DNA from: Candidatus Micrarchaeota archaeon
Lineage (GTDB): Archaea; Micrarchaeota; Micrarchaeia; Anstonellales; Bilamarchaeaceae
DNA: 64,000 bases
Assembly (NCBI GenBank): GCA_043821365.1
Contig: JBDRCX010000006.1
Location: 519,417 to 583,416, forward strand
Direction of reading: 5' to 3'
Shown piece by piece: positions 38,369 to 61,458 of this stretch. The position numbers were made by a program, and so were the translations under genes. Every line of letters starts with the position of its first letter. The stretch's first letter is position 1. The notes under the pieces are model-generated. The model did no database searches, was not told where the DNA came from, and saw only the letters and a list, made by a program, of their open reading frames with translations.

Positions 38369-41251
38369 ATGAAAGTAAACCTAAAGAAAATCGGCGCAGT
38401 TGTTGCGGGTGCAACAATTCTAGCCAGCTCAGCCGCGTTTGCCGGACTTATGTTCGGATCAACAACGTTGGTTGATGACAACGGTGCCCCAGTGGCAAAG
38501 GTTGTCGTGGGCAGCAATGCTATGCCAAGCGACGGTGTCGCAGCAGCATTGATTGCAGGAAAAATGGTAAGCGAAGCATACAAGTCAGCCACCTTGACCG
38601 CTCAAGTGTCTGGTACTGCAACTTGTTCAGGAGATGCAAATGCAACAGGAACCTGTGCAATTAGCAATGAGAAAGCAAAATTGGAAATTACAGTTCCAGA
38701 CTCAGTTGCAACAGGAACATGGACTGGAGCAAGCCTTATCGGTGATTTTATCAACAGAGATTTGAACGACCGAGTTCATAACGATGTTGCTGATAATGAT
38801 GTGTTGTATCCATTAACTGCATCTGAAACATCTGAAAGTGCAAACCCATTTACAGATAATACTGGTGCAGGTACTGATTTGGCATCTTCACCATCTGATG
38901 ATGAGGTTTTCTACAAAGTAGATGGCAGTGATTTTACTCCATTTGCTGATGCTGACTTATCGGATGATGATGCAGGTGATTCATATACAGAATCTCAAGC
39001 ATTGTGGATTCAAGGTGATGGTGAATATAATACTGGAGAAGAAGAACTTGTAGGACATGTTGATCTTTTGGTTTATTCAATAAGATTTGATGGTCCAGGT
39101 GGAGATGAAGCAGGTATTCCTGTTTGTACGAGCCCAGAAAATACAGACTACACATTCTGTAAGACTGGAGATGGCAACTTGGATTACGCAACAGAAACCC
39201 ATAAAGTTAATGTTTACTTCTTGGGTGAAAGTTGGGTTATTAGTGAAATGAACCCACCAACAGATGCAACTGCTGATGAGGATCTTGTCCAGAGCGGTGG
39301 TTCAATTAAACTTGCAAAAGAAGCAGTTTCTGGTATCTTAAACCAAGGTGAATCACTTCCAGTTGATGGATACAAATTCCAATTGGATGATCTTGAAGCA
39401 CATGGTGATCAAACATCTGCAATTTTGTCTGTTCTAGATGCTAACGGTAACATTCTCAAAAAAGACAAAGTTGAACCAGGTGAAACAAAAGAATTCAATA
39501 TTGAAGGACAAACATACAGATTCCACGTATACAAAGTTGCCCCAGGTTATACCTTCGGTGCAAAATGGGCAGATGTGGCTATCTTCTCTGAAGAATTAGA
39601 ATTAGAAGATGGTGAAGAGCTCAACAAAGAAGAAGGAGATAACGAAGGGTATTATGTAACTCTTGGTTGGAAGAACTATGATGCAGAAGCTGATGATGGT
39701 GATGCAGACAATGGTGAAGAAGAACAACCAGATGCATTGAGAACAATTATTCTCTATGCAGAAACACCAGAAGATGTTATCAGCAGCGGTGAAGATTTCT
39801 TGCTTGCAGGAGATTATATCCCAATTGTTCAAGATCCAGTTGCATGGAAACTAACTTTCCAAGGTTTGGACTTGACAACTGATGACTACTTTGGCCTTAG
39901 TTTCTCATTAGAGACAGGTGATAAGACCATTTCTGCAAATAAGATGGCAGATAATCTTGACTGTACCATAGCTGGTCCATATGTCGAAGTATCATCTGAT
40001 GCAGATGGTGGTATATTCGAAGTTAGTACTTTCTCTGACAATGAATTTTATGTCACACTAGGTAACGACTTTACCGACAATCTTGGAGGAGGTCTCTGTG
40101 ATGCATTAGCTGGAGGAGCTACTGGTATCGGTGCAATTGTTATGCAAGAATCTTCATCCTCTGGAGCTGACTACAACGTAGTACCATATGTTGTTGGTTC
40201 TGAAACAGAAGTTGGTTATTCACAAGTTGGTGATGGTGAAGATACATTTACCACAGGCGGTTCAATTTTGATTGAACAAGGCACAACTGTTAATGCCGAA
40301 TTACTTGCATCAACTATAGGTCCACCAATTGCACTATCTGATGATGAGATTGGTGCGTTGTTCGAAACTGTCCATGCGGCAGAGGACACTACAGTTACTG
40401 GTGGTGCTGGTTTGTACTTTGCAGTTTCAGAACATGCAGGTAATGACTACGTAAACTACTGGATATTCGGTGTTGATGACTATACTGACACAACAGATGT
40501 TGAATTCCAGTTCGATACTGATGCAATATTGAACATTGGCGGTACAACAGTCTTGTCAGATGATAGGTTACTGTACGGCCATGCAACTCCAAATGGAGAT
40601 GACTTCTATGTTGATGGTGCAGCAGCAACGGTATCTGGTCCAGTTGATTCTGGCGTAGAAATGGTTGAAGAAGGGTATGTATCAGAAAGAGGAACAGTTC
40701 TAAAATCATTTGACAGTGATGAAGTTAAATTCGATATGACTCATACACTTGGTCATCTTGAATGGTTCCTTGCTTCATCTGCAACTTCAGCAGACGATGC
40801 CTCAACAACCATTTGGACTGGTGGTGAAGGTGAATCAACCACTGTAAGCGGCGTAACAGTTAAAGTTCTCGAAATAACTGAAACTGTAGGCGCATGCAGC
40901 GCAGCAGGTGGTGCACCAGCATGTACAGCAGACATGACCGGCGTTACAGCAGTCATTATGCCAAACAATGCAGCATCAGTAACCGTTGCAATGCCATACA
41001 CTGGCAGCTATGGTAACTTGGTCGTACTCGACACAGATGCCGTAGGTGTAAACACCTTAGTATCAGTTGGTGGTGACAAAGTTAACTCTGTTACTGCAGG
41101 CTTGTTACAAGGTACACCAGTAGATTGGACAGCAGAGACAAAGGTTGTAAGAGAAGTCGTACAGGGATCAAAGATTGTGGTCGCTGGTAAAGACGCATCA
41201 GACACACTCGAAGCAGCCTCAGACTTTGTAGCACAAGTCCAAAAAGTCTAA
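38369..41251 (+). CDS. S-layer (surface-layer) protein
   Basis: Signal peptide MKVNLKKIGAVVAGATILASSAAFAG, a very acidic T/S/D/G-rich body and a C-terminal ...LVVLDTDAVGVNTLVSVGGDKVNSVTAGLL... typical of euryarchaeal-type S-layer C-terminal domains. Strong SD and a T-rich terminator. Confidence 0.7.
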   Translation: MKVNLKKIGAVVAGATILASSAAFAGLMFGSTTLVDDNGAPVAKVVVGSNAMPSDGVAAALIAGKMVSEAYKSATLTAQVSGTATCSGDANATGTCAISNEKAKLEITVPDSVATGTWTGASLIGDFINRDLNDRVHNDVADNDVLYPLTASETSESANPFTDNTGAGTDLASSPSDDEVFYKVDGSDFTPFADADLSDDDAGDSYTESQALWIQGDGEYNTGEEELVGHVDLLVYSIRFDGPGGDEAGIPVCTSPENTDYTFCKTGDGNLDYATETHKVNVYFLGESWVISEMNPPTDATADEDLVQSGGSIKLAKEAVSGILNQGESLPVDGYKFQLDDLEAHGDQTSAILSVLDANGNILKKDKVEPGETKEFNIEGQTYRFHVYKVAPGYTFGAKWADVAIFSEELELEDGEELNKEEGDNEGYYVTLGWKNYDAEADDGDADNGEEEQPDALRTIILYAETPEDVISSGEDFLLAGDYIPIVQDPVAWKLTFQGLDLTTDDYFGLSFSLETGDKTISANKMADNLDCTIAGPYVEVSSDADGGIFEVSTFSDNEFYVTLGNDFTDNLGGGLCDALAGGATGIGAIVMQESSSSGADYNVVPYVVGSETEVGYSQVGDGEDTFTTGGSILIEQGTTVNAELLASTIGPPIALSDDEIGALFETVHAAEDTTVTGGAGLYFAVSEHAGNDYVNYWIFGVDDYTDTTDVEFQFDTDAILNIGGTTVLSDDRLLYGHATPNGDDFYVDGAAATVSGPVDSGVEMVEEGYVSERGTVLKSFDSDEVKFDMTHTLGHLEWFLASSATSADDASTTIWTGGEGESTTVSGVTVKVLEITETVGACSAAGGAPACTADMTGVTAVIMPNNAASVTVAMPYTGSYGNLVVLDTDAVGVNTLVSVGGDKVNSVTAGLLQGTPVDWTAETKVVREVVQGSKIVVAGKDASDTLEAASDFVAQVQKV

Positions 41252-50745: not shown

Positions 50746-50860
50746 GCTATGAATAAGTTTGGAATAGTTTATATTTTTTAAGTTACCTACCTCAAAAAAA
50801 AACAGCAATATTTATAAATAAGAAAGCGCCTTTAATGTAAGGTATGCCGAGGCGGAGTAT

Positions 50861-53800
50861 ATGAGATTAATTATCATTTTTGCGTTGTTGGGTATAATTG
50901 GATTAAGTTTTGCTGGTACAATTGGATCTCCAGATCCTATAAATAATTGTCAGGAAATGGATACTTCAGGTTATTACTACCTAAATACTAATCTTGTTGG
51001 TGCTCCAATAGCTGTTACGGGTGGGAACACCTGCCTCCACATCATCAATTCAAGTATTGTTATTGATGGTAGGGGATACAATATAACTAATGACGGAACT
51101 GCAAATGCCTCTGCAATTTATGGTAATGGAATTAGTAATTTTACATTTTTCAATTCATCTGTTTCTCAGTACCAAGATGATAATTATGGCGGAGGTCAAA
51201 TAGAGTTTGATCATTCTTCAGACCTTTCTTTCTATGACCTTGTAGTCTACAACGGTAGTGGTGTATCTGGTTTTGATTTTTACAATGTTACAGATTTGGA
51301 AATTTACAATACTGAGGTGTTCGATCACAATAGGTCTGCAATCAGGGTTGATCTAAGTCAGGATATAGAATTTTATAATCTAGAGGTTCATGATATTTTT
51401 TCTTTCTATCATTGTGACTGGATGATGAACTGTCATTATGATTCTGATCCTGCCATCCGTATAATAAATTCAAATAATCTTGAATTTTATGATTCACAAG
51501 TATATGATCTTGAAACTGAAGGGGTTGATATTCAGAACCTGACAGGTGCAGACATTTATAGAATTGAAGTTTTCAATTTATCAGATATTCCTGATGAAGG
51601 TGATGCATCACTCTTAATTCTAGAAACAGTCCGATATGTCTATCTTGAAGATAGTCTGTTTCATGATTCTGAATATTCCTGTGTCGAAATTCACGAAAGT
51701 CAGGAAGATGAAATCGCTGTTGAGAACAGTGTTTTTGATAATTTAACTATCTATAATTGTGCTATTGGTTTGTCTTCAGGCGACAATCCTTTTGATTATG
51801 AAGAGTATTCTACTAATAATAGTTATACCAACCTTCACATATTCAATAATACACTTGGTATGATTTTATCTGCACACAATGACACTATATTGTCAAACCT
51901 TAATATTTCTGATAATATAATTTCTGGTTTGACTATGGCTTCATCATCCCATACAAATATAAGTAACAGTAATTTTACTGAAAATGGAGTTGTTGACCTT
52001 ATTGATGCTCCACTTTCAGCACTTATGATCGTTGGTCTTGTTGAATTTGTCCCGCCATTATTACAAGCAGTTCTAGGTCCACTTGGTTCTGGAGAATTAA
52101 ATATGAGCGCCATGATGTCCCAGATGCCTGATGGTGGTGCACCAGATTGTTCTACTACTCTTACAAACGTTACTGGTTCTGGCGGCAGACCAATACTATA
52201 TCTTAGGAATAATGAAAGCGTTGATGGCGGAGTTTATTCAGAAATACTTGTTTGCGCAGGTAATAACTCTTACATTAACAGTTCAACAGTCCTTGGATCA
52301 GATACCTTACACAATAACGGTCTTTTTGTTATGGGCGGAAGCAAAATGACTATAAAGAATTATACCTCAAATGGAAATGCCTTTGGTATGGTCCTTGTTT
52401 CTGTTGCTGACAGCCTGATAATTAATAATACAATTAATGATTCAACTGTTATTTTTGAATCACAATTAGAGGAATTTGACGTTAATATATCTGAATTCAT
52501 TGACATGGCTGGTCTTAATTCAAGTGATTACATGGATGTTGGTGAATTCACTCTTGCATGGAAGGTACTTGGACTTGCCTATGGTAGTGTTACAACATTC
52601 GGTACAATTAACACTACATTCTCAAACAATCTGATACAAAACAATGATTATTCTGGTTTTATCTCGTTTTTATCTTTCTGGAACACTTATGATGGTAATC
52701 TGATAAGATCCAACAATCAACATGCCATCGGAGATTTAGAATTTTCAATTCCAGTTAAAGCTCAAACTGTAGGTCCTGTTGAATTTGATCCAAATTCTTC
52801 TACTGACATAACTCTAACTGGGTTAGACACCATAAGATCTGGGTTTATATCTATAGCAGGATTCGGGGATAGTTATTCTGGTAATATTTTCTATAATAAT
52901 ACTGGGGCTGGTTTCACAAGTGTATTGACCTATGGAAATTCTTTCAATGAAAATCAAGCATACAATAACAGTGTATCTGGTTATGTTACTGTTCTTGGTG
53001 CACATAATACTTTTGTCGGAGACCAAGCATATCAAAACAATCCAGAAGATCTTAAAAATTCATTTGATTTATCACTATCAACACCAGCATCTTCATTTGA
53101 AGACCTACTAAACTATACTCCTGCAAATGCAACTGATGATGCATTATTGATGATACCAGCTTTTGTGGTTGGGGATATCACTATCAATGCACCAAAGAAT
53201 CTTTCGCACAATGTTGAAATTGTTATTTATTCCCCAGTTGCAAATCTGTCTTATTACCATACCCCTAACATCACTTCAAGTGCTAATTTCTCTCCAAACC
53301 TTTCTCTGAATTCAACATACTGGATTGAGGATTCACTTGGTGAAAATATTACTATTCATCTTAATGGGAATATGCCATTTTCTTTTACAATCAACATTCA
53401 TGAAAATGCTTCTGAAAACGCAACTTTCAGCAAATTAAAAATGGATATTATGGAAGTTGCTCCAGCCTCAGGTGGATTTGTTAATCACCTATCAATAGCA
53501 ACAAGGTTGCTAGGCGTTCAATCATATGAGAATAATGGTTATGGTGTTGCTGATTTTGCAATCCCACCAATATCTGTTGATCTAAATGTTGGTGAAAGTG
53601 TTGAGCTTATTGATGGGCCAGATATATTCTTGCTTGCATCTCTTCAACTTTTATTGAACCTTGTTTCAACTAATATCCCTGGGACACTTATCATAGCATC
53701 AACTGTTTCAAACAACAGTATGGATGACGTAAATACAGGATCGCTAATCCTTCCTTATGCAAAAACTTCAAAAGTAGTTTTCAATGATGCAGTTGGAGTT

Positions 53801-56101
53801 AGCTTAGAAACTGGAAGAGGTAGTTTATTCCAGCAATTCATGGATACAATGCCAATGGACTATTTTGCAACTATGACGTTTATTCAAGAAGATGAAGAAG
53901 GGGATTTTGATATACAGATGAGAGTAGGTAATATTTGGGAAGAAGATAGCAGTTATTTAAATGGTCTGCCACTCGCAATGAATAATTCTCCAACTCTAGA
54001 AACTTTTGTATATAATAATAACATTGTTCTTCTTATCTCAAATTCAACTAATGTAAGTGCTTATACGTGGAACGGGTCAATATGGCAGCCAAATGCATCC
54101 TGGGCAAGTGGTTTGAATGGTATGCCAGTCGCATATCCGATCTATCCAGCAGTATTCGAAATGGATGGATATTTGCATATGATCTATGGTACTTCTCCAG
54201 GAAATCTGTTTGGTTTAACTTGGACTGGATCAACATGGACAATTAATGCATCACTTACAAATGGTATTACCGGGGCTCCAGCTGCATTATCTGCATCTCC
54301 AACAGTTTTCTATGACAGAGAAAACTACAAGTTTGTTCTTGTTGTAGGTTATGAACTTAATAATAATTTATTTGTTTGGACAAGAAGCAATGGAAGCTCT
54401 AGTTGGTTTGAACCGTCGTGGAATGAATTCGGAGATGATGCTTGGAATTCAAGCCATGGTGCTCTTAGGCCAAGAGCTTATTACAGTGAAAAGTTCAATG
54501 AAGAAATTATAATTATTGGAATGAGCGATGGTACTTTTGCATGCACATACTGGGATGATGAGCATGAAGAAATAGATGATGGTGATATAATAAGATGTCC
54601 CCCAGACATAACTCAAAGGTACTATAATCTGACTTGGGTTTCTCCATCAACACCAGTTAGAATTGATGATACATTGATGTTTTTAGTAAGCAATAAAACC
54701 GTAGGTGGAGGAAATTTCACAGCATTTGTCTCTGATGATTCTGATATAGAAATTGGGCTTTATTTACACCCATTGGGTTATAGACTTTCAGGAATTGAAG
54801 CACCGTCAGCTACAACACCACCTGATTTGATTCCTTTCCATAATGAATATTTCTCATTAATAAGAAGTGCAGATCTGTTTGAAACATCTGTGCTTGGTTT
54901 ACAACTCAATGACTCTTTAGGTAAGAATTATGACCCTCTTATAATTACCATTGCGACTTTCGAATGGGCAAGAGCAAATATGAGTGGGTATGATGAAGAC
55001 ACAGTTGGCTTATATTGGTGGAATGGAACTGATTGGTTCCTAGTTCCAAATCAATATGTCATACCTTCAAAATACAGATTAGTAGTACTCAATTTACAAT
55101 CATATAATGAAACTGAAATCTATGGTTTATTTGCAGATGAAGGTCCAGACCTTAATTGTACTGGTTCATCAAATACTGAGTATAATTACATAGATCCAGA
55201 TGTTGATGTTTCTCATGATTGTGTTGACGGTCTTGAAGTTTCTACTCACACTGCAAGCGGAGATCCATGGGTAAATATCAATGTTGGATTTGGTTATACT
55301 GACCAGAATGGTATCTTTACATATGGACCATTACTATGTGCAGTTGATTGTACGACTGATCTTGACTGTCCAACATATCAAGAATGTGTTGGTGGACAAT
55401 GTGAACCTATAGAATGTTCATGTGGGCAAATTGTTGAACATACTTGCCAGGAATATGATTGTTGTACAAACAATGACTGCGGTTCAGGTTCAAGTTGTAT
55501 CAACCACAATTGTGTTTCAGTAGAAACCTGCACTTCTGATGGCCAATGTCTCTCAAGTGAATATTGTGATCTTTCATTGGGAGTTGGAATCTGCAAACCA
55601 GTTTCAAGTACTTGCGGTTATGCAGCAAACCACCAATGGACAGCATATGATTGTGGGGATTCTCCAGATTGTCCAAGCTGTGCTCCAGGATTTGTTTGTG
55701 AAGTTCACGAGTGTGTTGCATTACCATCTGACCTTACTGGTCCAGATTCAGGATTTGTTGGTGATGATGTTAATTTCCATGCAGTGAACTGCCCACAATG
55801 CCAAGTTCAAATCACTGATCCAAGAGGAAAGAACATGTCTGCTTTAACAAGCAGTTCAGGTAACCTTACATTGCCATTATCATACAATGGTACATACACA
55901 TTAACTCTGGTTAAAGGTTCAGTACCTATAAAAACAGCTTCTGTTAGAGCATTGTCAAAGAGTCCAGGCGTTGAGCCTGGTGGACCAAGCTTTATCAATG
56001 ATGTTGCACTCCCAGGGGCATTGATGGCATTATTACTTGCGTTAATTATTGTTTTCTTGTACTCAATTTTTACGAGGAACAAGCCAAAGATAAATGAATG
56101 A
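50861..56101 (+). CDS. Giant surface protein 1 (1,746 aa): signal/anchor, parallel beta-helix (PbH1/NosD-like) repeats, W-rich repeats, Cys-rich modules and a C-terminal TM anchor
   Basis: MRLIIIFALLGIIGLSFAG; periodic N-x-(S/T)-rich approx 22-aa beta-helix repeats; four DC..C..C modules; C-terminal PGALMALLLALIIVFLYSIFTRNKPK. Confidence 0.8.
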   Translation: MRLIIIFALLGIIGLSFAGTIGSPDPINNCQEMDTSGYYYLNTNLVGAPIAVTGGNTCLHIINSSIVIDGRGYNITNDGTANASAIYGNGISNFTFFNSSVSQYQDDNYGGGQIEFDHSSDLSFYDLVVYNGSGVSGFDFYNVTDLEIYNTEVFDHNRSAIRVDLSQDIEFYNLEVHDIFSFYHCDWMMNCHYDSDPAIRIINSNNLEFYDSQVYDLETEGVDIQNLTGADIYRIEVFNLSDIPDEGDASLLILETVRYVYLEDSLFHDSEYSCVEIHESQEDEIAVENSVFDNLTIYNCAIGLSSGDNPFDYEEYSTNNSYTNLHIFNNTLGMILSAHNDTILSNLNISDNIISGLTMASSSHTNISNSNFTENGVVDLIDAPLSALMIVGLVEFVPPLLQAVLGPLGSGELNMSAMMSQMPDGGAPDCSTTLTNVTGSGGRPILYLRNNESVDGGVYSEILVCAGNNSYINSSTVLGSDTLHNNGLFVMGGSKMTIKNYTSNGNAFGMVLVSVADSLIINNTINDSTVIFESQLEEFDVNISEFIDMAGLNSSDYMDVGEFTLAWKVLGLAYGSVTTFGTINTTFSNNLIQNNDYSGFISFLSFWNTYDGNLIRSNNQHAIGDLEFSIPVKAQTVGPVEFDPNSSTDITLTGLDTIRSGFISIAGFGDSYSGNIFYNNTGAGFTSVLTYGNSFNENQAYNNSVSGYVTVLGAHNTFVGDQAYQNNPEDLKNSFDLSLSTPASSFEDLLNYTPANATDDALLMIPAFVVGDITINAPKNLSHNVEIVIYSPVANLSYYHTPNITSSANFSPNLSLNSTYWIEDSLGENITIHLNGNMPFSFTINIHENASENATFSKLKMDIMEVAPASGGFVNHLSIATRLLGVQSYENNGYGVADFAIPPISVDLNVGESVELIDGPDIFLLASLQLLLNLVSTNIPGTLIIASTVSNNSMDDVNTGSLILPYAKTSKVVFNDAVGVSLETGRGSLFQQFMDTMPMDYFATMTFIQEDEEGDFDIQMRVGNIWEEDSSYLNGLPLAMNNSPTLETFVYNNNIVLLISNSTNVSAYTWNGSIWQPNASWASGLNGMPVAYPIYPAVFEMDGYLHMIYGTSPGNLFGLTWTGSTWTINASLTNGITGAPAALSASPTVFYDRENYKFVLVVGYELNNNLFVWTRSNGSSSWFEPSWNEFGDDAWNSSHGALRPRAYYSEKFNEEIIIIGMSDGTFACTYWDDEHEEIDDGDIIRCPPDITQRYYNLTWVSPSTPVRIDDTLMFLVSNKTVGGGNFTAFVSDDSDIEIGLYLHPLGYRLSGIEAPSATTPPDLIPFHNEYFSLIRSADLFETSVLGLQLNDSLGKNYDPLIITIATFEWARANMSGYDEDTVGLYWWNGTDWFLVPNQYVIPSKYRLVVLNLQSYNETEIYGLFADEGPDLNCTGSSNTEYNYIDPDVDVSHDCVDGLEVSTHTASGDPWVNINVGFGYTDQNGIFTYGPLLCAVDCTTDLDCPTYQECVGGQCEPIECSCGQIVEHTCQEYDCCTNNDCGSGSSCINHNCVSVETCTSDGQCLSSEYCDLSLGVGICKPVSSTCGYAANHQWTAYDCGDSPDCPSCAPGFVCEVHECVALPSDLTGPDSGFVGDDVNFHAVNCPQCQVQITDPRGKNMSALTSSSGNLTLPLSYNGTYTLTLVKGSVPIKTASVRALSKSPGVEPGGPSFINDVALPGALMALLLALIIVFLYSIFTRNKPKINE

Positions 56102-56111
56102 GGCGGAATAC

Positions 56112-59100
56112 ATGAGATTAATTATTATTTTTGCATTGTTGGGTTTGGTTGGATTAGTTACTGCAGCAGGTGATATTAGTTCAGGTCCCATCACAGATTG
56201 TGGTACCATACAGGCACCAGGATATTACTCCCTGGCTAACGATCTGTTGGGTGCAGATGTACCTTTCCTTAGTGGGACCCAAGTCTGTCTTTTGATTAAT
56301 TCATCAGATGTTGCAATAGATTGTGGTTCTTATACTATGTTTGATGATACTGGCACTAATCAAACTATTGCAATAGCAAACAATGCTAGTGCTATACTCA
56401 ATAATCTCACTATAAAAAATTGTGAAATATCAGGTTATAATGCTGATGGTGAAGATGGCCCCCCATCTTATCCACCAAGAGGCCAAATTCACATCTACGA
56501 TGTTGAAAACCTTTCATTATCTGGGCTTGAAGTTCATAATAGTACTTATTCAGTTGGTATTTCTCTTGAGAATGTTAACAATATTACAATGTCTGATCTT
56601 GAAGTTTATGATTTGAATCGATCAGCTATTATGGTCAAAGATAGTAAAAAACTCAACATAAGCAACATTTTTGTTCACGAAATATATTATTTCGATTCTT
56701 ATTATCATGACCACAACTATGCTGTTGACCTTAGAGATGTTTCGCGAGTTGATTTTAAAAATTCAGCTATCGGTTATAACCAAAGGCCATCAGTTAGACT
56801 TGAGGATGTTCAAAATGTAAAACTAGATGGTCTTGAAATTGCAAATAGTACTGTTCCTATGGACTGCGATTTTAATCCTAGTGACGATAGCTGTATGGAT
56901 CTTGCAAATCTTCTGAGAATTGAAGATGCGACTAATTTCTCCATTAAATCAAGTAATTTGTATAATACAGTTGGAGACTGTTTTGATATAGAAGAAAATG
57001 TAACTAACTTCGAACTAGATAATGTTGAAATTTATAATTGTATGGGGTCAGGGATAATGGCGCTTGGCGATGATCCTTTTAGCGATGAATATGACAATAA
57101 AAACCATAGCTTTTCATCTTTACATATATATAACACATCTCTTGCTATGGTGGTTGGGGCTTCAAATATCACAAAAATAAATAATTCTAATATCTCGAAT
57201 AATATCATTGGTTTAGTTTCCTTGTCAAACCATGATTTGTATATACTTAACAGTTTGATAAGTGAAAATATGCTTCTTGATTTCCTGGATATTAATCTAA
57301 TGTCACTTGAATCAGTTGGGGTGAGCAACTTCCTTGAACCTCTTCTAAATGAAACAATTGGTGAATTAGTTAACGAATCACTTGATCTTGGAGAACCTCA
57401 TGTTGATTGTTCAGTTTATCTTACAAACGTTACTGGTTCTGGCGGCAGGCCAATTCTTTATTTGAATGACACTACAAGTGTTGATGGTGGAGTTTATTCA
57501 GAAATAATCATGTGCGCAGGTAATAATACACACATAAATGGAACAACAGTTAGGGGTTCAGATAGTTTCTATAATAATGGTATTTTCATTATGGGTGGAA
57601 ACAATATTACAATTTCAAATTCTCTTTCTGAAGGAAATGCATTTGGTATGATGCTTTTTGCTGTTAGTAATAGTAATATTAGTAATAATGTAATACGCGA
57701 CTCAACAATGACACTTGAGGCACAAACTGCAGCATTAGGAATGAATGTAACTAGTTTCATGGAACAATTTGGCTTGAATATGTCTGAGGATGGCAACGAA
57801 TTAATTATGTACTGGAAAGGTCTTGGTTTGCTTTATGGCAGTGTAACATCATTTATCACAACAAATACATTATTTTCAAATAATCTTATAGAAGACAGCC
57901 AGTATCTAGGTATGATATCTATAATCTCTCTCGACAACACATATCAAGAAAATATAATAAGAAATAATAATTTATACGATCTTCAGGAATTTAACTTATC
58001 TCTTAGTTCTGGCGGTGGTAACACAACAAACTTCTCTGTCTATGGTCTTGATACATTTAGAGCTGGGTTTGTATCTTTAGGTGGAATTGGAGATACTTAC
58101 ATAGAAAATGAGTTCTACAATAATACAGGTTCTGGTTATCTTGGTTTATTACTATTAGAGAATGAATTTTACAGAAACAAAGCATATGATAATACGGTTT
58201 CTGGATTTGTTGCAGTATTAGGTGGTTACAATCAATTCATTGAAGATGAAGCTTACAACAACAATCCAGCTAATGATCTTGTTGGATTAAGCTTTACGAT
58301 ATACAATCCTGATAATCTTTCCGAGACAATCGAACCTCAGGTAAATATCTCATCTGGTGGTTTTGTAACTATCCTTGCTTTTGATACAATCATGCTTGGC
58401 ATAGAATCCCATGATAATAATGGGTATGGGGTTGTTGATTTCCCTATTCCACCAGTATCATTTTCAATGATTGATCCACTTAGTCTTGGGGAAGAAAACA
58501 TGTTTGAGGAAGGCATTCAAGGTATCTTAGTGAATGCAGGTCTCCAGGTTTTAATTAACCTTATCTCTGCTGATATTCCAACCACTACTATAGTTTCATC
58601 AACTTTTGCAGGAAATTCACTAGGTGGAGTTAATTCAGGTTCATTATTTTTGCCTCCAGCACAGCTATCTGATGTGAATCTTGGAGATACAATAAGTGTA
58701 AGTATAGAAACAACAAGAACTACAAGTTTAATTTCAGATTTCTATGATTCAATACCAGAAGAACTTTATGGAGTATTTGAATTTGGTGGTGAAGACTATT
58801 TCTCTTTCAATATGGGTAATGTTTGGGAAGAGAATAGCAGCTACTTAAATGGTCTGTCACTTCCTATGGCAGGTTCTCCAAATTTAGAAACATTTGTCTA
58901 TGATGACACTCTTGTTCTTCTTGTTTCAAATTCATCAAATGTCAGTTCATACGAATGGTCTGGTTCAACATGGCAGCTTAATAATTCTTGGGCAAATGGT
59001 TTGAATGGATATCCTTCTGAAATTTATCCAACCTACCCAGCAGTATTTGAAATGGATGGATTACATATGCTTTTGGGAACTGCAAATGGTTCAATTCTTG

Positions 59101-61064
59101 GTTTCAGTTGGAATGGTTCACAATGGGTATACAATACGTCTGTTGCTAACGGAATAGATTTACTAGCAGAGACTCCTCCATTATCACCTAAAAACATCTC
59201 ACCAACTGTTTTCTATGATGATATAGAAGGTAACTATATCCTTGTTGTTGGCTATTCAGGAAGTTATAATGGAAATAATAGAATACTTACATGGTCACGG
59301 GATAATGAGTCAACTCCATGGACTTGGGCAACCTATTATGAAGAAGATGAATGGGATGCAGATCATGGCCATGGTAATTCTACCAAGCCAAGAGCGTATT
59401 ACAGTGAAAGATATAATGCTGAAGTAATAATAATTGCTTTAGAAGATGGCACATTTGCTTGTAATTATTGGGATTCAGAACACAATCCAAATGGTATTGA
59501 AAGCGAGACTAGGTGCCCGCCAGATATTCCTGCAGGTAATCTTTCAGGTGCAACACCAGTAAGAATTGATGATGTGTTGCTATTTTTGGTAAGCAGCAAA
59601 TCATCAGGAAATTTCACAGCATTTGTTTCTAATGATTCTGATATAGAAATTGATTTACATGTTAATCCAACTGGTTATATCATTTCAGATGCTGCTGCTC
59701 CATCAGCTACTCCACCTACTGGTTTAATGTCTTTCAGAGGTCAATACATATCACTTGTGAGGAAGGCAAAGATGCTTGAAGCATCATTAGCACTGACTGC
59801 ATCTAACATCAGCTTAGGTAATGGTACAGTTGTTGATTTTGAAAATTATACTATTAATCTAAGTACAACTATTGATTTTGGTTATATTGAACTTGGCGGA
59901 ATCTATGATCCATTCGTAGTTTCTGTTGCAGTATTTGAATGGCCAAGGTCTGCAATAAGTGGCTACAGCCCAACTGCAATGAGATTATATGCTTGGGATG
60001 GTAGCAATTGGTCTTTAGTTCCGAATCAATATCCAGTTCCAGAAAGAAACATGCTCTTAGTATTTGATATTGCAAGCCAAGAAGATCAAGAAATTTATGG
60101 TTTATTTACAACAAGCGGACCGTCAATTGATGATTGCAGTGATGAAACCAACACTGTGAATGTTGACCTTCAACCAGATATATCTATGGAGTATGATTGT
60201 TACGATGGTCTTTACATTGAAGTTCTTGGTGCCAATGGTCCTATGGAATACTTAAACATTGGAATTGGAACCACAAATGCACAAGGTCAAGTTACTGTTG
60301 ATCCATTTGACTGTCAGGTAGAGGAGTGTACAACTGATCTTGACTGTCCATCTACTCAGGAATGTGTTAATGGCGAATGCAGGTCAGTTCAGTGTGATTG
60401 TGGACAAATTATTGATCATGTTTGCAATGACTATGAATGTTGTACTGACTTTGATTGCGAATCTGGTTCAACATGCATAAGCAATGAATGTGTGGAAGTA
60501 TCTTCATGTACCTATGATTACGAATGTCTATCAAGTGAATACTGCAGCAATGGTGTCTGTGTTCCAGTTACAAGTACTTGTGGATATGCAGCAAACCATG
60601 AATGGATACCGTACGAATGTGGTTCACAATCTGATTGTCCAAGCTGTGCTCCAGGATTTGTTTGCGAAGGCTACCAGTGTGTTGCACTACCCTCTGACCT
60701 TACTGGTCCAGATTCAGGATTTGTTGGTGATGATGCCACTTTCCATGCAATAAACTGCCCACTTTGTGAAGTTCAGATTTCAGACCCACTTGGTAGGAAC
60801 ATGTCTGCATTGACATCTGAAGCAGGTGATCTTGCTCTTCCACTGGCATACAATGGTACATACACATTAACCCTAGTGAAAGGTTCAGTACCAGTAAAAA
60901 CAGCTTCTGTTAGAGCATTATCAAGAAGCCCAGGTGTTGGTCCAGTTGGTCCAAGCTTCATCAGTGATGTGGCAGTTCCAGGTGCAATATTGGCACTATT
61001 GCTTGCTTTGATTGTGGTTTTCATGTATACTATCATGACAAGAGGCAAACCAAGAGTAAAATAA
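56112..61064 (+). CDS. Giant surface protein 2 (approx 1,650 aa), tandem paralog of protein 1
   Basis: Same architecture and same leader (GAGGCGGA-N4-ATGAGATTAATTAT...). ATG at 56112; the track start at 56094 overlaps the stop of gene 1. Confidence 0.8.
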   Translation: MRLIIIFALLGLVGLVTAAGDISSGPITDCGTIQAPGYYSLANDLLGADVPFLSGTQVCLLINSSDVAIDCGSYTMFDDTGTNQTIAIANNASAILNNLTIKNCEISGYNADGEDGPPSYPPRGQIHIYDVENLSLSGLEVHNSTYSVGISLENVNNITMSDLEVYDLNRSAIMVKDSKKLNISNIFVHEIYYFDSYYHDHNYAVDLRDVSRVDFKNSAIGYNQRPSVRLEDVQNVKLDGLEIANSTVPMDCDFNPSDDSCMDLANLLRIEDATNFSIKSSNLYNTVGDCFDIEENVTNFELDNVEIYNCMGSGIMALGDDPFSDEYDNKNHSFSSLHIYNTSLAMVVGASNITKINNSNISNNIIGLVSLSNHDLYILNSLISENMLLDFLDINLMSLESVGVSNFLEPLLNETIGELVNESLDLGEPHVDCSVYLTNVTGSGGRPILYLNDTTSVDGGVYSEIIMCAGNNTHINGTTVRGSDSFYNNGIFIMGGNNITISNSLSEGNAFGMMLFAVSNSNISNNVIRDSTMTLEAQTAALGMNVTSFMEQFGLNMSEDGNELIMYWKGLGLLYGSVTSFITTNTLFSNNLIEDSQYLGMISIISLDNTYQENIIRNNNLYDLQEFNLSLSSGGGNTTNFSVYGLDTFRAGFVSLGGIGDTYIENEFYNNTGSGYLGLLLLENEFYRNKAYDNTVSGFVAVLGGYNQFIEDEAYNNNPANDLVGLSFTIYNPDNLSETIEPQVNISSGGFVTILAFDTIMLGIESHDNNGYGVVDFPIPPVSFSMIDPLSLGEENMFEEGIQGILVNAGLQVLINLISADIPTTTIVSSTFAGNSLGGVNSGSLFLPPAQLSDVNLGDTISVSIETTRTTSLISDFYDSIPEELYGVFEFGGEDYFSFNMGNVWEENSSYLNGLSLPMAGSPNLETFVYDDTLVLLVSNSSNVSSYEWSGSTWQLNNSWANGLNGYPSEIYPTYPAVFEMDGLHMLLGTANGSILGFSWNGSQWVYNTSVANGIDLLAETPPLSPKNISPTVFYDDIEGNYILVVGYSGSYNGNNRILTWSRDNESTPWTWATYYEEDEWDADHGHGNSTKPRAYYSERYNAEVIIIALEDGTFACNYWDSEHNPNGIESETRCPPDIPAGNLSGATPVRIDDVLLFLVSSKSSGNFTAFVSNDSDIEIDLHVNPTGYIISDAAAPSATPPTGLMSFRGQYISLVRKAKMLEASLALTASNISLGNGTVVDFENYTINLSTTIDFGYIELGGIYDPFVVSVAVFEWPRSAISGYSPTAMRLYAWDGSNWSLVPNQYPVPERNMLLVFDIASQEDQEIYGLFTTSGPSIDDCSDETNTVNVDLQPDISMEYDCYDGLYIEVLGANGPMEYLNIGIGTTNAQGQVTVDPFDCQVEECTTDLDCPSTQECVNGECRSVQCDCGQIIDHVCNDYECCTDFDCESGSTCISNECVEVSSCTYDYECLSSEYCSNGVCVPVTSTCGYAANHEWIPYECGSQSDCPSCAPGFVCEGYQCVALPSDLTGPDSGFVGDDATFHAINCPLCEVQISDPLGRNMSALTSEAGDLALPLAYNGTYTLTLVKGSVPVKTASVRALSRSPGVGPVGPSFISDVAVPGAILALLLALIVVFMYTIMTRGKPRVK

Positions 61065-61206
61065 TTTTTTTTCTTTTCTTATCATTTTTAATCAAATATG
61101 GCCATGTTTAGAGCAAAACCAACGTTTATAAATACTTCTCTCATAAATCTTCCTACAAGGAAGCTAGTACAATTGCTAGCCCTGCTCTTTTGTTGGGTGA
61201 TTCTGC

Positions 61207-61458
61207 TTGAAGAAGAAAAAAAGTAGTACTACAATAGATGTTTTATCGCATGATCTTGTTCCTGAAATGAAAGTTTTATCTGATAATGAAAAGTCAAAAG
61301 TTCTCTCTAAATACCAGATTGATGAAGATCAATTTCCTAAAGTTTCTTCTAAAGATTCTGCAGTTGTTGCACTAAAAGCAACTGTTGGAAATGTTCTTGA
61401 AATCAAGAGAGATGATGGAACTGGGAAGTACACCACATACAGGATAGTGGTTGAATAA
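61207..61458 (+). CDS. rpoH: DNA-directed RNA polymerase subunit H (Rpo5)
   Basis: DVLSHDLVPEMKVLSDNEKSKVLSKYQIDEDQFPKV...DSAVVALKATVGNVLEIKRDDGTGKYTTYRIVV. Confidence 0.9.
   Translation: MKKKKSSTTIDVLSHDLVPEMKVLSDNEKSKVLSKYQIDEDQFPKVSSKDSAVVALKATVGNVLEIKRDDGTGKYTTYRIVVE

Follow-up and report, generated by a model that had tools for sequence, protein, structure and literature searches.

Host recognition and attachment by DPANN archaea are largely unknown, and the leading candidates for these functions are large surface proteins that are glycosylated and lineage-specific. In Nanobdella aerobiophila, MJ1_0451, MJ1_0701 and MJ1_0776 have been described as pectin-lyase-like putative surface proteins of 908-1320 residues (bioRxiv 10.1101/2023.10.27.564410). 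Strain-specific propeller/PKD/CARDB surface proteins have been reported from the micrarchaeon Mia14 (PMC5498576), and beta-propeller (YVTN), PKD and beta-helix domains are found in surface-layer proteins of Methanosarcina mazei (Jing et al. 2002, Structure 10:1453, as cited in PMC5498576). Here we describe two adjacent genes, A and B, in a 64,000-nt stretch (the window) of the genome of a Candidatus Micrarchaeota archaeon (assembly GCA_043821365.1, contig JBDRCX010000006.1, positions 519,417 to 583,416). In the reading that we consider fairly probable, they encode co-transcribed type-I membrane-anchored, N-glycosylated surface proteins, which would most likely bind glycans or proteins of another cell.

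Like the Nanobdella proteins, A and B come from an ultrasmall symbiotic archaeon and contain beta-helix repeats and immunoglobulin (Ig)-like folds, with 53-62 N-glycosylation sites vs 36-52 in Nanobdella; in both cases the host-interaction role is a proposal. However, the Nanobdella proteins belong to a different phylum and are shorter, the likeness described here being one of architecture, and neither a propeller nor a Cys-rich stalk nor a tandem-paralog arrangement has been reported for them. To judge from the account of the M. mazei and Mia14 proteins in PMC5498576, A and B share with these a modular construction from beta-helix, beta-propeller and Ig-like modules, strain specificity and a notable share of a small genome, but they are anchored through a cassette of Cys-rich stalk, Ig-like domain and transmembrane (TM) helix instead of CARDB or PKD arrays. 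Moreover, since it has no Pfam match, the propeller of A and B is not of the YVTN, Kelch or LVIVD type, and belongs instead to a five-repeat EPTP-like family.

The propeller has its closest known counterpart in the EPTP/EAR propeller of LGI1 (PF03736; PDB 5y2z, 8hpy), an extracellular protein-binding module whose repeats agree with the A/B repeat in length (about 50 residues), in their pattern of strands and in having an aromatic/Trp motif. The blades of LGI1 number seven and the repeats or blades of the A/B family five, PF03736 is not reached by the window proteins themselves, and ADAM22, the ligand of LGI1, has no counterpart here; the resemblance may reflect homology or convergence. The locus links an uncurated prokaryotic repeat family to a metazoan domain. 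As predicted glycosylated surface proteins whose C-terminus leads from a Pro-Gly-x motif through a hydrophobic helix into a basic tail, A and B recall the PGF-CTERM glycoproteins. As a whole, A and B belong to a kind of protein already described in such archaea; some of their modules are uncurated, and no concept is changed.

Structure and Age of the Gene Pair

Genes A and B lie head to tail on the forward strand, 10 nt apart, and both open reading frames (ORFs) are intact, with 1746 and 1650 residues. Together they occupy 10.2 kb, or 0.85% of the 1.2-Mb genome, and the adjacent paralogs of these sizes, filling some 10 kb of a small genome, that the preliminary description had reported are thus confirmed. 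The same holds for their common leader, ribosome-binding region and signal: GAGGCGGA-N4-ATGAGATTAATTAT precedes and opens both genes (50849-50874 in A, 56100-56125 in B), both proteins begin with MRLIIIFALLG, and the 57-nt block of leader and signal peptide is 88% identical between the two. The ORF finder places the start of gene B at 56094 (1656 residues), where an upstream ATG would add MNEAEY; because the leader block and MRLIIIFALLG open both genes, 56112 is the most likely start. Inspection of the 10-nt spacer gave no box comparable to the TATA-like box upstream of gene A, and an oligo-T run follows gene B. The simplest reading of box, spacer and oligo-T is that the pair would be carried on a single two-gene transcript.

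The pair is an old duplication. In fact, the two proteins are only about 48% identical over their length, nucleotide identity by segment ranges from 46 to 77%, and synonymous divergence (dS) is near saturation (1-2), falling to 0.74-0.85 only at residues 426-511 and 1545-1724. The ratio of nonsynonymous to synonymous divergence (dN/dS) is below 1 in every segment. The description of the ends as conserved and of the N-terminal two thirds as diverged is roughly right: identity is 22-47% over residues 1-420, varies from 41 to 71% in the middle and amounts to 58-82% over the final 250 residues, but reaches 65% at residues 452-511, well within the part said to be diverged. The diversifying selection that had been read from this pattern is not supported. 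With dN/dS below 1 throughout and dS near saturation, no positive selection can be read from the pair, and the conserved C-terminus appears better explained by a stalk-and-anchor cassette that recurs in no fewer than three further surface proteins of the genome.

The Five-Bladed Propeller

The W-rich repeat region, initially suspected to form a propeller, proved to be a true tandem repeat of about 50 residues (consensus WQSNSSIVSGLTGLPVGYSSSPTVFEKDGTLYLISGESTGNFYGYNWTGSTW), and the modelling and the fold search support its reading as a five-bladed beta-propeller of EPTP/EAR-like type. The AlphaFold2 model built from a 28-sequence alignment (predicted local distance difference test, pLDDT, 70; predicted template modelling score, pTM, 0.74) has five blades of three to four strands each. 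In the Foldseek comparison with the PDB, 125 chains were found at E<=1e-3, and among the matches listed (50) all were propellers; the top four were the LGI1 EPTP domain (best 6.7e-7), followed by enzymes of glycoside hydrolase (GH) families GH43, GH62, GH93 and GH117 and by a lectin. LGI1 was also first in the PDB sequence profile search (E=0.002), and the Pfam EPTP model matches 3 of 28 members of the repeat family (best 2.2e-7). In A itself, residues 1015-1300 are without any Pfam family, GH families included, even at E<=10.

Furthermore, an exhaustive HMMER search of the middle region against 1.84 billion representatives retrieved 251 clusters at E<=1e-3, nearly all of which match the W-rich repeat alone, with no full-length relative among them. 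The repeat is carried by at least 251 clusters at 50% identity and has no Pfam model of its own. Five units make up 132 of 192 repeat arrays in homologues, ten-unit arrays being seen as well. The names of the top clusters are blank save for one "hypothetical protein, Micrarchaeota", and the single genomic context retrieved was uninformative; among Micrarchaeota the family is sporadic (12 of 301 genomes). A word-indexed protein search with the propeller alignment returned two proteins, and with the window protein the two paralogs, one weak Gugararchaeum beta-helix match and nothing else. No match was obtained in the PDB with the whole protein, no NCBIfam family with the window proteins, and no record by exact-sequence look-up of gene A. 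As a small soluble domain, the five-bladed propeller is suited to expression and ligand screening.

The Predicted Beta-Helix Modules

The N-terminal half is read, from profile evidence, as two successive beta-helix modules. PF13229, the sole Pfam match, scores 33.6 bits in A and 48.9 bits in B, over the gathering cut-off of 25.9, and lies just under this cut-off in P0005, the homologue from a second genome of the genus (G137; 25.2 bits). When the A protein is split, the matches fall at residues 255-376 and 464-623. The beta-helix assignment made in the preliminary description is supported by these matches; with NosD (PF05048) one half scored 16.6 bits (E 0.0055) and the other 11 bits (E 0.29), short of the cut-off of 23.6, and TIGR03804 also remained below cut-off in the window proteins. 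The cap block of the second module (residues 425-511), the most conserved part of the N-terminal half with 65% A/B identity, is aligned by hhalign, at 95% probability, with a Gugararchaeum beta-helix protein of 2007 residues, at residues 617-703, in the segment that immediately precedes its strong beta-helix region. The PDB profile search with the N-terminal half gave no match.

Between the two modules, A carries a hydrophobic stretch of 33 residues (GVVDLIDAPLSALMIVGLVEFVPPLLQAVLGPL; 51986-52084, residues 376-408; hydropathy 2.0), whose counterpart in B is polar; it is probably buried, a membrane-interacting loop being the alternative. B has a weak hydrophobic stretch of its own at residues 746-764, without a match in A. 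At the site of the 120-residue insert of A, the G137 homologue has a different, unrelated insert of about 250 residues (L021:10780-11530), and this site, in or after the second module, appears to be a permissive insertion point. The segment that follows (residues 872-1025), possibly a continuation of the beta-helix, has no homologue elsewhere among the 1.84 billion representatives.

A Shared Stalk-and-Anchor Cassette

In the hydropathy profiles of both proteins, a signal peptide at the N-terminus and, ahead of a basic tail, a TM helix at the C-terminus stand out strongly. The four Cys-rich modules and the TM anchor of the earlier account are borne out. The modules contain 24 Cys in all, spaced identically in the two proteins save for one loop (8 vs 4 residues), and the next domain contains a CxxC motif. 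This domain falls short of PF13620 in A (residues 1645-1685: 14.5 bits, E 0.046; cut-off 32.3 bits), and its equivalents in the micrarchaeal relatives P0083 and P0154 score 36.8 and 29.1 bits (5e-9 and 1e-6).

Three more proteins of the genome with a signal peptide (899, 537 and 1099 residues) have the block of Cys stalk, Ig-like domain and TM helix at their C-terminus as well, and Cys modules occur in four further ORFs; the cassette marks out the surface proteins of the organism. Counted together, at least seven signal-peptide proteins besides A and B have these Cys-rich modules, three of them with the whole cassette (C3:75337-78036, C6:664330-672774, C6:458593-461892 and C2:87797-94372); four of their genes stand in a row at C6:664330-672774 and have a second type of leader, MLNKKILALFVALAVVFVLVVIPSNALSV, in common. 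An explanation of the conserved C-terminus by recent gene conversion was rejected: the cassette of A is about equally near the copy in another species (68% identity) and that of B (67%), and dS there is 0.74-0.79.

Anchoring by archaeosortase was also rejected. Unlike the PGF-CTERM substrates of archaeosortase, A and B have the C-terminal motif PGA and not PGF, without an NCBIfam PGF-CTERM match at E<=10, and no archaeosortase gene (PF09721, TIGR04178) was found in this 87% complete genome, control genomes being positive. A plain TM anchor is thus more likely.

Upstream of the stalk lies a domain of about 95 residues with the pattern FHW..LYxWNGxxW..IYGLF (54887-55180). In many large ORFs of the family (L011-L019) the domain recurs, with a Gly-rich linker and a small two-Cys beta domain directly after it. 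The FHW domain has no match in Pfam, NCBIfam or the PDB, the PDB profile search giving chance matches only.

Sequons and Composition

The density of N-x-S/T sequons that had been pointed out is real: A has 62 and B 53, or 3.6 and 3.2 per 100 residues, about seven times the genome median of 0.46 and well over the approximately 1.45 expected from their composition. Moreover, an ORF of 1018 residues in the genome matches STT3/AglB above cut-off (34 bits), and from the sequon excess and AglB both proteins are predicted to be heavily N-glycosylated. A, B and the cassette-bearing proteins are acidic and Asn-rich, with 1-3% Lys vs 7.6% in the proteome. Since all predicted surface proteins, the pair (50861-61064) and the S-layer candidate (38369-41251) among them, are poor in Lys and Arg and strongly acidic, this composition looks like a genome-wide rule for exported proteins.

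Distribution and History

The A/B architecture is present in 2 of the 40 genomes (species) of the genus, namely the window genome and G137, where the single assembled copy, cut off by the end of the contig, likewise follows the GATase gene at the corresponding position. The GATase gene directly adjoins rpoH-rpoB in five of the six further genomes of the genus that were examined, which identifies the pair as a lineage-specific insertion of about 10 kb into a housekeeping backbone, between the GATase gene and rpoH. A mobile-element origin was considered and is unsupported: no flanking direct repeats were found around the insertion, and its GC content is genome-like (34-38%). At the syntenic rpoB locus, both strands of three genomes placed in the same genus (G091, G150 and G160; L024, L026 and L027) are rich in long spurious ORFs, which suggests a GC content much above that of the window genome (36%).

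The proteins A, B and P0005 are roughly equidistant (47-48% identity), but the closest pair changes along their length: in the propeller A pairs with B (55 sites vs 23 and 25 for the other pairings), in the second beta-helix module B with P0005 (48 sites vs 27 and 36). For these three sequences the regional change is significant (p=1.6e-5). It is only suggestive of old domain-wise recombination or conversion, or of strong rate shifts.

Proposed Role and Alternative Explanations

That A and B have the architecture of surface-anchored glycoproteins is well supported, and their function is predicted from it. They would be exported by the Sec pathway through a cleavable N-terminal signal peptide, and held in the cytoplasmic membrane by the single C-terminal TM helix and a short basic cytoplasmic tail. 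The membrane-proximal cassette, made of the Ig-like beta-sandwich and a probably disulfide-rich stalk, would raise the ectodomain off the membrane. Outwards from it, the ectodomain would consist of the lineage-specific beta domain, the five-bladed propeller with its near-equivalent W-rich blades and a distal rod formed by the two beta-helix modules. A multivalent, lectin-like head may be provided by the propeller, with the beta-helix serving as rigid spacer or as a further surface for binding; the target would be another cell, a host or a matrix, and two diverged paralogs could provide two specificities. Four features favour an adhesin or lectin engaged in cell-cell contact: the propeller has an internal five-fold sequence symmetry, the nearest relative of the propeller is a binding domain, the putative beta-helix is rod-like, and the pair is lineage-specific. 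Comparable roles have been proposed for the beta-helix and propeller surface proteins of Nanobdella and Mia14. The pair offers good candidates for host attachment, with well-defined, testable modules. A more specific version, which we hold to be speculative and rather doubtful, regards the W-rich repeat as an uncurated prokaryotic branch of the EPTP/EAR family, five-bladed and symmetric, that would form a multivalent lectin-like host-recognition head, the tandem paralogs with their mosaic history representing alternative host specificities.

Several points weigh against this account. A and B have no known ligand, lectin motif or host, and no RNA run holds the locus, all public runs found being DNA. 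The putative beta-helix fold is indicated by profile matches, about 40% of each protein is without a recognisable family (residues 752-1025 and 1296-1495), and an AlphaFold2 model of residues 872-1495, with the two paralogs as sole alignment, reached a pLDDT of 34 and was not used. The propeller model is confident over blades 1-3 but weak over blades 4-5 (pLDDT 45-60). Furthermore, the best fold matches include glycoside hydrolases, which leads to the main rival, in our view an unlikely one: A and B could be surface-anchored polysaccharide-degrading enzymes, with a pectin/pectate-lyase-like beta-helix and a GH43/62-like propeller, that cut the host envelope or environmental glycans. The many GH43, GH62, GH93, GH117 and polysaccharide lyase (PL) propellers in the Foldseek list (TMq up to 0.58) are consistent with such enzymes, as is the beta-helix, which is the pectin-lyase fold, and a degradative role has been proposed for the pectin-lyase-like proteins of Nanobdella (bioRxiv 10.1101/2023.10.27.564410). 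However, the resemblance to GH43 and GH62 (TMq 0.5-0.58, from a model whose blades 4-5 are of low confidence) comes with only 7-14% identity to hydrolases, no Pfam or NCBIfam family of carbohydrate-active enzymes is matched by the window proteins, and the best match in both sequence and fold is the non-enzymatic EPTP domain of LGI1. The propeller consists, moreover, of five near-identical sequence repeats. Such a pattern is typically seen in binding propellers, not in the catalytic domains of GH43.

Somewhat less probable still is that A and B are structural parts of the organism's own envelope, such as an S-layer-associated spacer or a matrix or biofilm scaffold, and recognise no other cell. 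Their anchoring cassette and their acidic, Lys-poor, sequon-rich composition, common to other envelope proteins of the genome, would fit this role, and an S-layer-type gene (PF05124) lies 10 kb upstream; but a core component should be conserved, whereas the pair was seen in just 2 of the 40 genomes of the genus and is missing from the syntenic site in most genomes examined, and the genome has a separate S-layer candidate. An origin of either copy by duplication in the assembly, or its decay to a pseudogene, can be dismissed with near certainty, even though the G137 contig ends inside the homologue and a shared cassette can break assemblies. The copies differ far too much for this in DNA sequence and in dS (about 0.7-2), both frames are intact under dN/dS below 1, and Logan contigs of three public metagenome runs (two studies, groundwater and biofilm), one of which may be the genome's own assembly sample, match both genes with 0 differences, span their junction (55740-57285) and have similar depth over A and B.

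Features of the Locus and Its Surroundings

The coordinates of the pair and of its modules are collected in Table 1.

Table 1. Features of genes A and B and of their flanks (window positions; residue numbers refer to the protein of gene A unless B is named).
Feature	Position	Strand	Remarks
TATA-like box TTTATAAA	50811-50818	+	About 45 nt 5' of gene A ATG; read from sequence; sole one for the pair
Shine-Dalgarno-like leader of gene A, GAGGCGGA + 4 nt	50849-50860	+	Repeat family D9, 88% identical to 56100-56156
Gene A (P0001), 1746 residues	50861-56101	+	Intact ORF
Sec-type signal peptide of A, MRLIIIFALLGIIGLSFA before G	50861-50917	+	Hydropathy peak at residues 1-24; predicted cleavage site
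Putative beta-helix module 1 of A (residues ~25-380)	50933-52000	+	PF13229, three stretches, best at residues 255-376; in B best at 90-194
Putative beta-helix module 2 of A (residues ~425-751)	52133-53113	+	Opens with conserved DCS..GSGGRPILYL cap; PF13229 E=7e-5 and TIGR03804 in 4 stretches, both below cut-off
A-specific insert, ~120 residues (752-871)	53114-53473	+	Missing in B
Conserved segment of A (residues 872-1025)	53474-53935	+	No known family; conserved in A, B and P0005
Five-bladed beta-propeller of A, ~50-residue W-rich repeats (residues 1026-1295)	53936-54745	+	Repeat detection, AlphaFold2, Foldseek, PDB profile search
Putative Micrarchaeota surface-protein domain (FEW/FHW..LYxWNGxxW..IYGLF)	54887-55180	+	Seen in numerous large ORFs of the family
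Cys-rich stalk of A, 24 Cys in four modules (residues 1496-1620)	55346-55720	+	Common to other surface proteins of the genome
Ig-like/CarboxypepD_reg-like beta-sandwich with CxxC (residues 1621-1700)	55721-55960	+	81% A/B identity
C-terminal TM helix of A, ALPGALMALLLALIIVFLYSIF, and basic tail TRNKPKINE	56006-56098	+	Hydropathy peak 2.84
Shine-Dalgarno-like leader of gene B	56100-56111	+	Overlaps gene A stop codon (56099-56101)
Gene B, 1650 residues from the conserved MRLIII start	56112-61064	+	Intact ORF
Beta-propeller of B (B residues ~905-1180)	58824-59651	+	52-59% identical to the A propeller
Cassette of B (stalk, Ig-like domain, TM helix)	60324-61037	+	Counterpart of the A cassette
Oligo-T run, archaeal terminator-like	61065-61080	+	3' of gene B; read from sequence

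A contig of one run (X1) has 7 differences within 28 nt of the stalk/Ig cassette (55699-55726), at 44-71 nt from the contig end; either strain variation or cross-assembly with a different cassette copy could account for them. After the pair and before rpoB''/rpoB' lies a small rpoH gene (61124-61458) with its own TATA-like box, which falls below the ORF threshold of 100 residues used here. The window comes from an archaeal genome of 36% GC, and its features include a split RpoB, PAC2 and the S-layer-type gene. RpoB'' is 85-94% identical to that of metagenome-assembled genomes labelled Candidatus Micrarchaeota, Bilamarchaeum or 'ainarchaeum'.

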